From contig JBBRXE010000002.1 of assembly GCA_038248695.1 (NCBI GenBank), positions 1 through 41,027 on the forward strand: a stretch of 41,027 bases of DNA, written 5' to 3'. The position numbers and the translations under genes are program-made. The stretch comes from Candidatus Limnocylindria bacterium (GTDB taxonomy: Bacteria; Chloroflexota; Limnocylindria; QHBO01). The notes beneath the pieces are model-generated. The model was not told the DNA's origin. It ran no database searches and worked only from the letters and a program-made list of their open reading frames with translations. Below, one piece after another: positions 2,703 to 29,554 of the stretch (positions are counted from its first letter, which is position 1; each line of letters begins with the position of its first letter).

Positions 2703-2746
2703 ACGCTAGTCCGCGACAGGCTAGGAAGCAATAGGAAGTGTGTACG
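2703..2746 (-). promoter_or_regulatory. Predicted promoter with upstream 14-mer (minus strand CGTACACACTTCCT-a-TTGCTT-17 nt-TAGCGT)
   Basis: Read directly from the sequence:
- 14-mer: 2733-2746
- -35: 2726-2731
- -10: 2703-2708

The architecture is near-identical to the promoter at 29510-29554. Confidence 0.5.
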
Positions 2747-2792
2747 AGCCGGTGTACGGTTCGCAGACCGTCATCCGAGCTATCGTCAGGAC

Positions 2793-4260
2793 GTGTGGAA
2801 ATAGCCGGACTCTGAGGGCCCGCGAGGCACAAAGAGAACGGCGTACCCTTCCGGTTGTTGAAGCCAAAGAAGGAGACGCCGCGATGGAAACGTACCACGC
2901 TCCGACCCCGGTCGCACAGCCCCAGCCGCCGACCGAGGCCGGCATCGACCGCCACGCGCTGGCTCCCGTCGAGCCGCGGGTGCCTGAGCCCGAGCCCAGC
3001 CAGGCGCCCGCCTCGATGGTCAACCAGACCATCGAGGAACTGGCGCGCGAGGGCGCCAGGCGCATGCTGGAACGGGCCCTGGCAGTCGAGGTCGACGAGT
3101 TCCTGGGCCGCCCCCGCTACGAGCGCCGCCTGCTGGCCGAGCACGGCTACCGCAACGGCTACGGCCGCCCGCGGGCGGTGGCTATCGGCACCTGGCCAGT
3201 CGAGGTTCGCGCACCGCGCATCCGCGACCTGCCGGACGACGCACCGCCGTTCCACTCTGCCATCCTGCCCCGGCGACGAATGCTGTCGGCCGAGACGCAG
3301 CGCCTGTTCGCGCGGCTCTACCTTGAGGGCCTCAGCTCGGGCGACTTCGAGCCCGCCTTCCGCGAGCTGCTCGGCGAATACGCCACCCTGTCGAGCTCGA
3401 CCATCCTGCGCCTCAAGGAGGAGTGGGCTGCCGAGTACGCCGCCTGGCGGGTGCGTCCGCTGAGCGCCAGATACGCCTACATCTGGTCGGACGGCATCTA
3501 CCTCGGTGCCGGCCTGGAGCCCGAGAACAGCTGCCTTCTGGTGATCGTCGGCGCGCGCGAGGACGGCCGCAAGGAGCTGCTGGCCATGGAGCTCGGCTAC
3601 CGTGAGAGCGGCGCGTCGTGGGCTGCGGTGCTGCGCGGCCTCCGTGACCGCGGGATGAAGGCGCCGCTGCTGGCCTGTGGCGACGGCGCGCTGGGCCTGT
3701 GGGCCGCACTCAACGAGGTCTTCCCGACCACCCGCCATCAGCGCTGCTGGAACCACCGCGTGCTCAACGTGCTGGACAAGGTCCCAAAACGGCTGTGGCC
3801 CGACATCCGCCGCCGGCTGCGTGAGCTGTGGAGCGCCGACAGCCGAGCCGAGTGCGAGCTGCGCCGCGATGGGCTGCTGCGTTGGCTGGAGGCCCACGGT
3901 CAGCTGGCCGCGGCCGACACCGTGCTGCGCGACTGGGACGACTTCGTGACCTTCTACGACTTCCCGGCCGAGCACTGGATCCACCTCCGGACCTCGAACC
4001 CGATCGAGTCGCTGTTCGCCGGGGTCCGGCTGCGCACCGACGTCGCCAAGCGCATGCGCCGCCGCGAGAACGCCCTCTACCTGGTGTTCAAGATCGCCCA
4101 GCGCCTCGAGCACTCCTGGCGTCCGCTCAACGGCGGGCTGACGATCATGACCCTGCTGCTCGGCGGCGCGCGGTTCATCGACGGCGTCTACGTGCGGGTG
4201 CCAGAGGAGGTGTCAGCGGCCTGATTCCGGATTGACACGGCGCCACAGGTGCTTCCACAG
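2793..4260 (+). mobile_element. IS256-family insertion sequence (ends approximate)
   Basis: Contains an intact Transposase_mut-type gene. The candidate terminal inverted repeats are weak: gtgtggaaatagc (2793-2805) versus the reverse complement of ggtgcttccacag (4248-4260), matching at 9 of 13 positions. No target-site duplication was seen. Confidence 0.6.
2884..4224 (+). CDS. IS256-family (mutator-type) DDE transposase, 446 aa
   Basis: Track ORF 2740..4224, with ATG 2884 behind AAGAAGGAGA. Family motifs present: YIWSDGIYL, ACGDGALGLWAAL, QRCWNHRVLNVLDK and TSNPIESLF. Confidence 0.9.
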   Translation: METYHAPTPVAQPQPPTEAGIDRHALAPVEPRVPEPEPSQAPASMVNQTIEELAREGARRMLERALAVEVDEFLGRPRYERRLLAEHGYRNGYGRPRAVAIGTWPVEVRAPRIRDLPDDAPPFHSAILPRRRMLSAETQRLFARLYLEGLSSGDFEPAFRELLGEYATLSSSTILRLKEEWAAEYAAWRVRPLSARYAYIWSDGIYLGAGLEPENSCLLVIVGAREDGRKELLAMELGYRESGASWAAVLRGLRDRGMKAPLLACGDGALGLWAALNEVFPTTRHQRCWNHRVLNVLDKVPKRLWPDIRRRLRELWSADSRAECELRRDGLLRWLEAHGQLAAADTVLRDWDDFVTFYDFPAEHWIHLRTSNPIESLFAGVRLRTDVAKRMRRRENALYLVFKIAQRLEHSWRPLNGGLTIMTLLLGGARFIDGVYVRVPEEVSAA

Positions 4261-4275
4261 CACAGGAGGATGAGC

Positions 4276-4725
4276 ATGACCGACGCGGCGAATCACCCAT
4301 GGCAGGCGATCGGCGCGGTACGCGACTGGCTGGCTGCAGCCGGACTGCCGGTCCACGAACACCCGACCCTCGACGTGCCATCGAAGGACCGTGAGATGGC
4401 GTGCGCCCTCATCGAGGAGGAGGCCGCCGAGTTCCGGGCAGCGGTCGAGGCATCCGACCTGGTCGAGATCGCTGACGCGGTCGCGGATCTCATCTGGGTC
4501 GTGCTGGAGGCCGGCATCACCTTCGGCATCCCAATCGAGGACGTCTTCGCCGAGGTTCGCCGCTCGAACCTGACCAAGATCGAGACTGGTGAGCCGGTCG
4601 TCAACGCCAACGGCAAGATCGTCGCCGGGCCGACCTTCTCGGCACCCGATCTGCTGCCGATCCTGGCGGCGCATGCTCGATCCCCGGACGACGTCGCTGA
4701 GTGGATCCGGCGACGTGCCGACTGA
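4276..4725 (+). CDS. MazG-like / phosphoribosyl-ATP pyrophosphohydrolase-like NTP pyrophosphatase, 149 aa
   Basis: Track ORF 4249..4725; the second ATG (4276) is 6 nt after AGGAGGA. LIEEEAAEFRAAVEASDLVEIADAVADLIWVVLEAGITFGIP...EVRRSNLTK matches the all-alpha MazG-like EExxE ... D..aD motif pattern. Confidence 0.75.
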   Translation: MTDAANHPWQAIGAVRDWLAAAGLPVHEHPTLDVPSKDREMACALIEEEAAEFRAAVEASDLVEIADAVADLIWVVLEAGITFGIPIEDVFAEVRRSNLTKIETGEPVVNANGKIVAGPTFSAPDLLPILAAHARSPDDVAEWIRRRAD

Positions 4726-4755
4726 GCTGTCCGCCCGCCCGTTTACATCATCGTG

Positions 4756-28214: not shown

Positions 28215-28613
28215 TCAGAAGGGCTTCTCGATGAGCCCGTATGCCACCGCGATGGCGGTGATGACCGATACCACCACGCTGGCCACCACCATCCACACCA
28301 GGCCCATGATCCCGTTAGTGATGCGCCGCGAGGCGTGGTGCTCAGCCTCGCTGTTGGCCCCGGCCAGCATCTTCTCGATGCCGCCCCAGACGATGACCGC
28401 GGTGCAGATGGCGATGCCCAGACCGATGGCGATCGCCACCAGGGTGGTGATCATGCCCGTCACCGGTGCCAGCGCCTGGCGCGCACCGGCAGGCACGCTG
28501 TCGGCCCCCAGCACCGGCGCTGCGGCCGCCAACAGGCCGAGCGCAGTCAGCAACGGACCGATCAGGCGGCGATGGGGGAGCGAGCGGTGGAGGGAGGGAT
28601 CGGTCATGCGCAC
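28215..28613 (-). CDS. TrbC/VirB2-like conjugative pilin
   Basis: It has a signal peptide ending VLGA/DS. Two hydrophobic helices (MITTLVAIAIGLGIAICTAVIVWGG and IMGLVWMVVASVVVSVITAIAV) are separated by a charged loop, which is the TrbC/VirB2 topology. Confidence 0.6.
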   Translation of the reverse strand: MRMTDPSLHRSLPHRRLIGPLLTALGLLAAAAPVLGADSVPAGARQALAPVTGMITTLVAIAIGLGIAICTAVIVWGGIEKMLAGANSEAEHHASRRITNGIMGLVWMVVASVVVSVITAIAVAYGLIEKPF

Positions 28614-28618
28614 TGCCC

Positions 28619-29212
28619 TCAGCCGATGGCTGCCTCGCTCGGCGTGCCGCGGCGGTAGTCGCGCACGAAGGCGGCGATGGCGGCCTCGTCGGCAGAGGTA
28701 AGGTCCAGTCCGAGTGCCGCGAACCAGGACACCACGTGCTGCAGGCGCCGCAGCCGATCGAACTCGCGCGGGCTGATCAGCGAGGCTGCGAAGCGGCCGC
28801 TGGACACGATCGTCTTGGCCTGCCCCGCGGCGATCTGCTCGAGGTTGGTGGCCAGGTTCTCGCGCAGGTCGGTGATCTGCACGGTGGACAGCGGCCCCGC
28901 GATGTCGCGCGGCTCTGCGTCGAGACGGCGGATGGCCGCCTGGCTGGGAGCCAGCTCGCCGCGCACCGCGGCCGCCAGCTGAGCGGTCCCCGGCAGCAGC
29001 TCAGGGTAGATCCCCAGGGCGTGCAGCGCGGCCAGTGCGCGTTCGGTGCGGCCCCAGCGCTCGGCTTCCTCGAAGCGAAGCAGGACCGCGGCCGGGATGC
29101 CGTGCTGCATGATCACCAGCGGATTGCCGTCGGCGACGCGGGCCACCACGGCGCGGATCCGCTCGCGGACCTCGCGCATGCCGAGCGCCTGAAGCTCACC
29201 GGCGATGGTCAT
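28619..29212 (-). CDS. Protein with two tandem Phd/YefM-type antitoxin-like domains, 197 aa
   Basis: Track ORF 28619..29404, trimmed to ATG 29212, which forms an ATGA overlap with the upstream stop.
- **Domain 1:** GMREVRERIRAVVARVADGNPLVIMQHGIPAAVLLRFEE.
- **Domain 2:** VQITDLRENLATNLEQIAAGQAKTIVSSGRFAASLISPREF. Confidence 0.6.
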   Translation of the reverse strand: MTIAGELQALGMREVRERIRAVVARVADGNPLVIMQHGIPAAVLLRFEEAERWGRTERALAALHALGIYPELLPGTAQLAAAVRGELAPSQAAIRRLDAEPRDIAGPLSTVQITDLRENLATNLEQIAAGQAKTIVSSGRFAASLISPREFDRLRRLQHVVSWFAALGLDLTSADEAAIAAFVRDYRRGTPSEAAIG

Positions 29213-29502
29213 GCCTGGTCGTCGGTCACGAGCAGGTCGTGCGGTAGCGGGCCGACGATGACGTCGAGCGACTCCCCGCGCCAGGTGAGTCGAATCGGTC
29301 GGCGGCGGGCGCGCAGCATGCCGCGCCGCAGGTCGTCGCGGAAGGAGGTGATCGACTGGGTCCGGCAGCGCTCGCCGGGAACCATTCGACGCAGCATGGC
29401 CCATGGCTGGCCGTGCCGCAGGACCACCACGGTTTCGCCCGCTGCGGCGTGCGCCGCGATGTCCGCCATGCGACGCCTGAGAGTCCTGACTGACACGACC
29501 AT
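29209..29502 (-). CDS. Phd/YefM-type antitoxin-like protein, 97 aa (first gene of the operon, apparently leaderless)
   Basis: VSVRTLRRRMADIAAHAAAGETVVVLRHGQPWAMLRRM fits the Phd/YefM N-terminal fold pattern. The ATG at 29502 lies 7 nt after the predicted -10. Confidence 0.65.
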   Translation of the reverse strand: MVVSVRTLRRRMADIAAHAAAGETVVVLRHGQPWAMLRRMVPGERCRTQSITSFRDDLRRGMLRARRRPIRLTWRGESLDVIVGPLPHDLLVTDDQA

Positions 29503-29509
29503 GCCGCTA

Positions 29510-29554
29510 ACGCTACCCGCTCCCGCGTCCGTATGTCAAGAGGAAGTGTGTACG
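29510..29554 (-). promoter_or_regulatory. Predicted promoter of the T4SS/Tad operon (minus strand CGTACACACTTCCT-c-TTGACA-18 nt-TAGCGT-7 nt-ATG)
   Basis: Read directly from the sequence:
- 14-mer: 29541-29554
- -35 (consensus TTGACA): 29534-29539
- -10: 29510-29515

The 14-mer and the -10 hexamer are identical to those at 2703-2746. Confidence 0.55.

Follow-up and report, generated by a model that had tools for sequence, protein, structure and literature searches.

Contig JBBRXE010000002.1 of a Candidatus Limnocylindria bacterium raises the question of why the same 14 nucleotides stand directly in front of two separate promoters. The window examined here is this entire metagenome contig (41,027 bp), and the 14-mer CGTACACACTTCCT has exactly two matches in it, at 2733-2746 (site A, upstream of a Ubl/E2 locus) and 29541-29554 (site B, upstream of an operon for a type IV secretion system (T4SS) and Tad proteins), both on the minus strand. 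Allowing up to two mismatches returns the same two matches, with 0.11 expected. Site A reads CGTACACACTTCCT-a-TTGCTT-17 nt-TAGCGT on the minus strand (2746-2703), and site B reads CGTACACACTTCCT-c-TTGACA-18 nt-TAGCGT-7 nt-ATG (29554-29510, with the ATG at 29502). The 14-mer identity, the 1-nt gap to the -35 and the identical TAGCGT had been reported in a first-pass annotation and are confirmed by the window sequence. The flanks, described there as unrelated, indeed do not align, except that the identity extends from the box through TTG (17 of 18 positions) and ends there. Comparison with 43 related loci, labelled by L-numbers, leads to an answer that we regard as moderately probable: a single operator box would serve two promoters of one integrative and conjugative element (ICE) and be bound by one element-encoded regulator, likeliest the Phd/YefM-like proteins Phd1 and/or Phd2.

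The box and its two promoters

Site-B-type promoters are present in 16 loci, which come from different metagenome-assembled genomes (MAGs) and metagenomes, and share the consensus (A/G)CGTACACA-N7-TTGACA-N2-CGGAC(G/A)C-N9/10-(-10)-N6/7-ATG. TTGACA is kept in 15 of the 16, the spacer measures 17-18 nt, and the -10, of the pattern TANNNT/CANNCT, always precedes the ATG by 6-7 nt. Conservation begins sharply at the box and continues to the ATG, while the DNA and genes further upstream are unrelated in every locus, and no synteny was found upstream of site B among the related loci compared. By-eye inspection across loci revealed no consistent second upstream box at site B. All 16 loci share the protein start MVV(S/T)VRTLRR and the gap of 6-7 nt between the -10 and the ATG, which supports the earlier proposal of a leaderless first gene, and the predicted leaderless mRNA appears to be a conserved arrangement. 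The motif CGGAC(G/A)C, at 29525-29531 in the window's spacer, follows the -35 by 2 nt in 14 of the 16 promoters, and in the site-A promoters of the window (2709-2717), L029 and L020 the -10 is closely preceded by a CGGAC motif; this spacer motif may be a second operator.

Relatives of site A were gathered by using the E2-like protein (2-760) to retrieve contexts, and a site-A-type promoter stands before a leader region in L022, L029/L030, L033, L034, L020 and L035-L040. The box is 7 nt from the -35 (8 nt in L035-L040), two boxes recur with a period of 12-13 nt in all eight two-box loci measured, and the proximal box of L033 is CGTACGCA. Variants of the -35 are TTGCTT, TTGATT, TTGACT, TTGACG and TTCCCA, and those of the -10 are TAGCGT, TACCTT, TAGAGT and TAGCTT, separated by a spacer that is steady in length (16-17 nt) and variable in sequence. 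TTGNNN, 16-17 nt and TA(G/C)NNT are found together in seven distinct loci, and the first stem of the leader (GGCGGC) starts 7-8 nt after the -10. With hexamers 16-18 nt apart at positions that are kept among relatives, both cassettes resemble sigma-70-type promoters, and conservation upholds their earlier reading as promoters. A -10 of the TANNNT type is known in high-GC bacteria, and the TAGCGT hexamers fit this type.

Two other origins of site A were considered and rejected. Two parts of site B, ACA in the -35 and CGGACGC in the spacer, are missing from site A, and a 36-nt position weight matrix of the site-B-type promoter gives 49.9 bits for site B and -7.1 bits for site A, the latter within the range of shuffled sequence; full homology of site A to the site-B promoter was rejected on this score. 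A decayed copy of a Phd gene was likewise dismissed, as tblastn of Phd1 and Phd2 against positions 1-2800 returned noise (best E 0.01-0.1).

Comparison of the loci indicates that the conserved core is CGTACACA, extended (A/C)CGTACACA, and that the remaining CTTCCT is a variable linker, which is AATCCT, ATTCCT or ATACCT at other B promoters and CTTGCT or CTAGCT at other A promoters; identity over the full 14 nt occurs also at promoter B of L013 and is limited to a few elements. The box covers roughly -51 to -43, with exactly 7 nt between it and the -35, and this fixed distance in two otherwise unrelated promoters argues for a specific protein site. Where boxes are paired, both members change jointly between subfamilies: both boxes hold CGTACAC in the window, L022 and L029, and the pair is ACGTACACA/ATGTACACA in L041, GTTGACACAA twice in L020, TTTGTACAT twice in L035-L040, and TTCCTCACACA twice in L021 and L019. 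Such joint variation suggests the site of a specific DNA-binding protein rather than an upstream promoter (UP) element or a sigma element. In the window CGTACAC has 6 copies against 4.4 expected, the non-promoter copies lie inside genes, and A-N7-TTG follows the promoter copies only; that the motif occurs elsewhere in the elements at background level and within genes also argues for a specific protein site. In both the window and Ga0556617_0000655, a related contig of 52.5 kb, CGTACACA stands 7 nt upstream of the -35 at promoter A and at promoter B. The search for the motif before homologous operons in other genomes, which the first-pass annotation had proposed, returned both promoter types with the box at the same 7-nt distance, and it is this conservation in related elements that lifts the repeat above chance.

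The same evidence bears on a simpler account, in which the box reflects shared promoter ancestry or a generic strengthener of the UP or extended -35 kind, with no common regulator and no co-regulation. The box does lie where UP subsites lie (~-43 to -51), and it is invariant in the 16 site-B loci despite Phd1 identities of 58-100%. UP elements, which the C-terminal domain of the alpha subunit contacts, are A/T-rich stretches from -40 to -60. The box, however, is not A/T-rich (44% G+C), it is sequence-specific, and in other subfamilies the site-A boxes are replaced, both jointly, by the unrelated GTTGACACAA, TTTGTACAT or TTCCTCACACA while the hexamers remain sigma-70-like, a pattern that contacts with a conserved polymerase would hardly produce. 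We consider this account unlikely. Of the earlier description of the 14-mer as an operator or UP-like site, the conserved box at a fixed position with the marks of a protein site is thus retained, and the UP element is not.

A third class of promoter was observed in L041, upstream of the gene for a 512-aa serine recombinase on a 302-kb contig, where the minus strand at ~1290-1340 (locus coordinates) reads ACGTACACA-cag-ATGTACACA-N7-TTGAAG-N17-TAGCGT. The box may serve more than two types of operon.

The element and its candidate regulators

The related loci indicate that both operons belong to one element. The Ubl and E2-like genes of the window, the latter with more than 200 homologues, are the first genes of a Ubl/E2/JAB/E1/AAA/integrase operon that is complete in L029 and L033-L037. 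In L033/L034 the gene order is VirB4, M23/SLT hydrolase, coupling protein, relaxase, promoter A with its leader, and then Ubl, E2, an 87-aa protein, a JAB-like protein, ThiF/E1, an AAA protein and a tyrosine integrase. Ga0556617_0000655, which contains L029 and L031, holds both operons in the same orientation, with gCGTACACAattcctcTTGACA as the box at promoter B and CGTACACccaagCGTACACActagctaTTGATT at promoter A, and its proteins share 63% (E2) and 69% (Phd1) identity with those of the window. Because the operons are adjacent in L033/L034 and together on Ga0556617_0000655, both loci are read, by synteny, as the backbone of one ICE family. In the window the relaxase gene and site A are separated by ~9.7 kb that contain a frameshifted restriction-modification gene, an exonuclease gene, a transposon and a repeat at 12008, and the comparison with L033/L034 marks these as additional DNA, in keeping with the earlier view that the loci were separated later. 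The repeat is a 37-nt direct repeat (12008-12044 and 37866-37902, 34 of 37 positions identical) that resembles a tRNA 3' end and brackets the transfer operon and cargo, not the Ubl operon; no tRNA was called at it, no integrase domain was found nearby, and it is absent from all related loci. A search of a plasmid collection found no relative of the site-B region.

The genes that follow site B in syntenic loci encode Phd1, a double-Phd protein, a T4SS pilin, a PrgI-ATPase fusion, TadA and TadB/C, and in the window the operon ends with a Replic_Relax relaxase (12507-13595). Of the 40 homologues of Phd1, most have 97 aa and all start with MVV(S/T)VRTLRR, and the nearest relatives of Phd1 are in Chloroflexota MAGs (Limnocylindrales/Chloroflexia). 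The profile of the Phd1 family against the PDB gave a weak match to the DNA-binding N-terminus of the Phd/YefM-type antitoxin VapB46 (E=7.5e-4). No toxin family was matched downstream of Phd1 and Phd2, the next gene being the T4SS pilin (PF18895), and the order Phd1-Phd2-pilin is conserved in L031/L032; a type II toxin-antitoxin module, with its toxin directly downstream, is therefore not what the locus presents. Phd1 and/or Phd2 are plausible as the best candidates for the box-binding protein, because they are the first products of promoter B and the only recognizable DNA-binding proteins among the backbone proteins scanned, and they always come first after the site-B box. A distant Phd-like gene (30% identity) stands behind a different box type in L019.

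The first-pass annotation had named a helix-turn-helix (HTH) protein encoded at 1594-2004 as a possible common regulator, beside the Phd-like proteins. This protein is encoded by the first protein gene downstream of site A and has a weak HTH_23/HTH_38 motif, but no homologue was found in the 43 related loci, which include 10 with the leader-Ubl region. In those 10 loci of the order promoter A-leader-Ubl, the leader runs straight into Ubl, and the HTH gene sits inside a duplication of the leader that is found only in the window. It is a poor candidate, and its role as the common regulator seems very improbable. Of the proposal that the two loci form one regulon in one mobile element, the single element is thus upheld by synteny and the shared regulatory site largely so by the promoters of relatives, whereas the HTH regulator falls away.

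The mechanism that best fits a shared operator read by a Phd-like protein is as follows. Promoter B (29510-29555), which has one box, would direct a leaderless mRNA for the two Phd/YefM-like proteins, which come without a toxin, and then for the T4SS/Tad proteins and the relaxase. Promoter A (2703-2759), with two direct boxes and a weak -35, would direct the leader and then, as seen in relatives, the genes from Ubl to the tyrosine integrase. One element-encoded protein on the boxes of both promoters would link the transfer genes with the Ubl/integrase operon, acting as an autoregulator at promoter B and, given the weak -35, more likely as an activator at promoter A, where it would be bound in tandem. 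A partial parallel is phage lambda, in which PRM yields a leaderless mRNA for the regulator cI and a site abutting the -35 allows activation via sigma contact; cI, a phage repressor, differs from the proteins considered here in fold and acts on palindromic operators, and the analogy concerns a possible mechanism only.

Several observations weigh against a common operator and regulator. All site-B loci share one box type, and the agreement between A and B rests on two elements with the same box. Site A matches the site-B profile only in the box, the linker and TTG. An E. coli-type promoter scan (at least four of six matches per hexamer) calls neither A nor B, and TAGCGT matches TATAAT at three of six positions. 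As a rule, Phd/YefM antitoxins recognize palindromes lying across the core promoter rather than direct repeats placed before the -35. The sequencing runs that hold the window sequence are DNA metagenomes or of unknown type, with no RNA run among them. The window also contains 143 repeated 14-mers in total, mostly GC-rich or due to a true 915-bp duplication, and shuffling within 500-nt blocks yields a mean of 0.285 repeated 14-mers of at most 50% GC; because 20% of such shuffled windows hold at least one, the 14-mer repeat taken alone is weak evidence and only suggestive. That the repeat is a chance match is nevertheless exceedingly improbable and effectively refuted, as both copies lie at the same offset in promoters that are conserved across many elements.

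Among known systems, the regulation proposed here for the boxes and the Phd-like proteins would belong to the class of element-wide operator regulons and would extend this class to an unstudied ICE family, the closest analogues being the IncP Kor and inc18 Omega systems. In IncP-1 plasmids (RK2/RP4), KorA, KorB and TrbA act on operators of several operons, and a central control operon encodes the repressors (PMC2665229, PMC4889941). Kor operators are 12-13 bp palindromes at or near the -10, or distant from it, and are bound by HTH or ParB proteins in Proteobacteria (PMC2665229, PMC4889941). As with Kor, more than one backbone operon carries the same short sequence at a set place in its promoter, and transfer would be coupled to core functions. 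Unlike Kor operators, the box in the window is asymmetric, occurs singly or in direct repetition and stops 7 nt short of the -35, and its candidate binding proteins are Phd/YefM-like. The Omega repressor of inc18 plasmids such as pSM19035 is a small dimeric ribbon-helix-helix protein that reads directly abutting 7-bp heptads. Omega resembles the present case in its short asymmetric tandem repeats upstream of or overlapping the promoters of several operons, to which it binds co-operatively, and differs from it in that the boxes of the window have a period of 12-13 nt and a binding protein that is only a candidate. Phd/YefM autoregulation is similar in placing a Phd/YefM-fold protein (PF02604) first in its operon behind a conserved promoter-proximal site. 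Unlike in Phd/YefM toxin-antitoxin systems, the next gene encodes a T4SS pilin, the site, which is no palindrome, precedes the -35, and a distant promoter has a second one.

To our knowledge, almost nothing is known of how mobile elements of Chloroflexota are controlled. The present comparison defines two promoters and a candidate operator for conjugative elements of this phylum (Limnocylindria-like MAGs) and links a conjugation machinery to an unusual operon of Ubl, E2, E1 and JAB proteins plus integrase that is preceded by a 690-nt RNA leader. If the Phd-like proteins bind CGTACACA, the Phd/YefM fold would gain a role as master regulator in conjugative elements, beyond antitoxins.

The leader, the transposon and other features of the window

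The coordinates of the features discussed are collected in Table 1. Site A does not stand directly before a protein gene: a structured non-coding leader comes first. Its similarity to L020 and L022 spans all frames and both strands, and its 5' stem GGCGGCCGG/CCGGCCGCC is kept through compensatory changes (CCGG:CCGG, CTGG:CCAG, CTGTCG:CGACAG). An open reading frame at 2345-2629 was rejected as a protein gene, since its homology to L020 and L022 lies in several frames and on both strands and its hairpins are conserved. The 3' ~485 nt of the leader are duplicated at 1073-1557, before the Ubl gene, with 78% identity. A search against Rfam matched no family at gathering thresholds or at E<=1. A leader stretch of ~35 nt, AGCTCACCTTACCAACCGCATACACGCTGCCATT (2505-2545, minus strand), is nearly identical in the window and L020 despite diverged surroundings.

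Table 1. Features of the window, in order of position (window coordinates)
Feature	Position	Strand	Basis or remarks
Ubl (ThiS-like, 853-1089) and Prok-E2_D-like (2-760) genes	2..1089	minus	Pfam
HTH gene between two leader copies, window-specific	1594..2004	minus	weak HTH_23/HTH_38 match
Structured leader of ~690 nt, non-coding, predicted from site A	2005..2696	minus	nucleotide conservation with L020, L022
Site A core promoter	2703..2731	minus	-35 TTGCTT 2726-2731, 17-nt spacer, -10 TAGCGT 2703-2708
Site A -35-proximal box CGTACACA	2739..2746	minus	7 nt from -35; also in L022, L029, L034
Site A distal box CCGTACAC	2752..2759	minus	direct repeat 13 nt upstream of proximal box
IS256-family transposon	2777..4789	plus	PF00872 5.5e-57; left inverted repeat (IRL) 2777-2803, right inverted repeat (IRR) 4765-4789
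Transposon genes: tnp, MazG-like passenger	2884-4224, 4277-4725	plus	
Remnant of older tnp 5'UTR and first codons, stop at codon 4	4798..4900	plus	~80% identical to 2826-2925
Rest of T4SS/Tad transfer operon	12507..28613	minus	Pfam matches; synteny with L004, L008, L009, L013-L015
Phd2, two Phd/YefM-like stretches	28619..29212	minus	PF02604 5e-16, two stretches
Phd1, 97-aa Phd/YefM-like, predicted leaderless first gene	29209..29502	minus	PF02604 weak match, residues 2-35
Site B core promoter	29510..29539	minus	-35 TTGACA 29534-29539, 18-nt spacer, -10 TAGCGT 29510-29515
Site B box ACGTACACA	29547..29555	minus	(A/G)CGTACACA invariant in 16 site-B-type loci

Next to site A lies a transposon whose inverted repeats match at 23 of 27 positions and which is flanked by an 8-bp target duplication, CGTCATCC, at 2769-2776 and 4790-4797. 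The duplication bears out the first-pass reading of an IS256 insertion at this place. A Transposase_mut DDE transposase, terminal inverted repeats and a target duplication of 8-9 bp are typical of the IS256 family, and the transposon of the window has all three. Duplications of 8 bp occur also in L020 (CCTGACCG) and L041 (AACGCCCG), and the three independent target duplications support real insertions. Further transposon loci were retrieved by transposase identity alone, and the plasmid collection gave only short matches to IS256 genes. The left inverted repeat lies 16-20 nt from the outermost box, and divergent from the promoter, in the window, L020, L021, L022, L041, L006, L029 and L033; in L019 the distance is 14 nt, judged by eye from a partial outer copy of the repeat. 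The transposon of L006 adjoins a genuine Phd1 promoter, L029 and L033/L034 hold decayed remnants, and in L042/L043 the left repeat is separated by 8 nt from the ATG of a Phd1-like gene. What stays constant is the spacing to the box, whereas that to the -35 varies (~34 nt in L006, ~44 nt in the window).

This constant spacing raises the alternative that the box is itself tied to the transposon, as a pseudo-end, a recognition or landing site of the transposase or the relic of old ends of an insertion sequence (IS), in which case the likeness of sites A and B would stem from transposon activity. The left repeat or a remnant of it lies at the distance just given in many loci and is always divergent, the inner core of the inverted repeat, TTTCCACAC(G/T)TC(C/T)T, shares 10 of 14 positions with CGTACACACTTCCT, and the right repeat carries an outward TTGACG. 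Yet 14 of the 16 site-B loci keep the box without a nearby IS or inverted repeat, with no convincing match to an IS remnant upstream of the window's own site B, L035-L040 have boxes and no IS remnant, and the target duplications mark the boxes as flanking DNA. Because an identical transposase (P0045) adjoins four different box types, the boxes are better read as a target of the transposon than as a part of it, and we judge an origin in the transposon to be improbable.

With the box read as an operator of the host element, its proximity to the insertions suggests a tentative further step: the boxes, or the regulator bound to them, could serve as a homing signal for passenger-carrying IS256-type transposons, possibly via the operator-bound Phd-like protein. 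We put this forward as a possibility that is less likely to be right than wrong. Insertions of IS256, of the group p-MULT 1, have been reported as apparently random, and TnGBS and ISLre2, of the p-MULT 3/4 families, use sites 15-17 bp ahead of the -35 in sigma-A promoters and keep to one orientation (Guerillot et al. 2014, PMC3942029). The transposon of the window is like these in its Mutator-superfamily DDE transposase, its single orientation and its fixed short distance, and unlike them in that its 16-20 nt count to the outermost box and passenger genes are carried; with the orientation fixed and the distance to the -35 variable, targeting of the TnGBS/ISLre2 type does not describe it. The box apparently marks a landing site of an IS256-type transposon and so offers a handle on target choice in a family reported to insert apparently at random, and if the homing reading is true, the transposon finds conjugative elements by reading their control regions.

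Directly after the right target duplication, the remnant of an older tnp copy suggests an earlier insertion at the same spot. Runs X1-X3 of the same or related studies contain three contig variants of this region, with junctions 2369/2777, 2761/4790 and 2853/4841. Contigs of run X2 have no transcript-like ends, and its low-depth variant is consistent with a transposon-free allele. The contig of X3 has a deletion next to the IS, in which site A is lost together with the 5' ~330 nt of the leader, and one variant contig is a recombinant between the two copies of the tnp 5'UTR.

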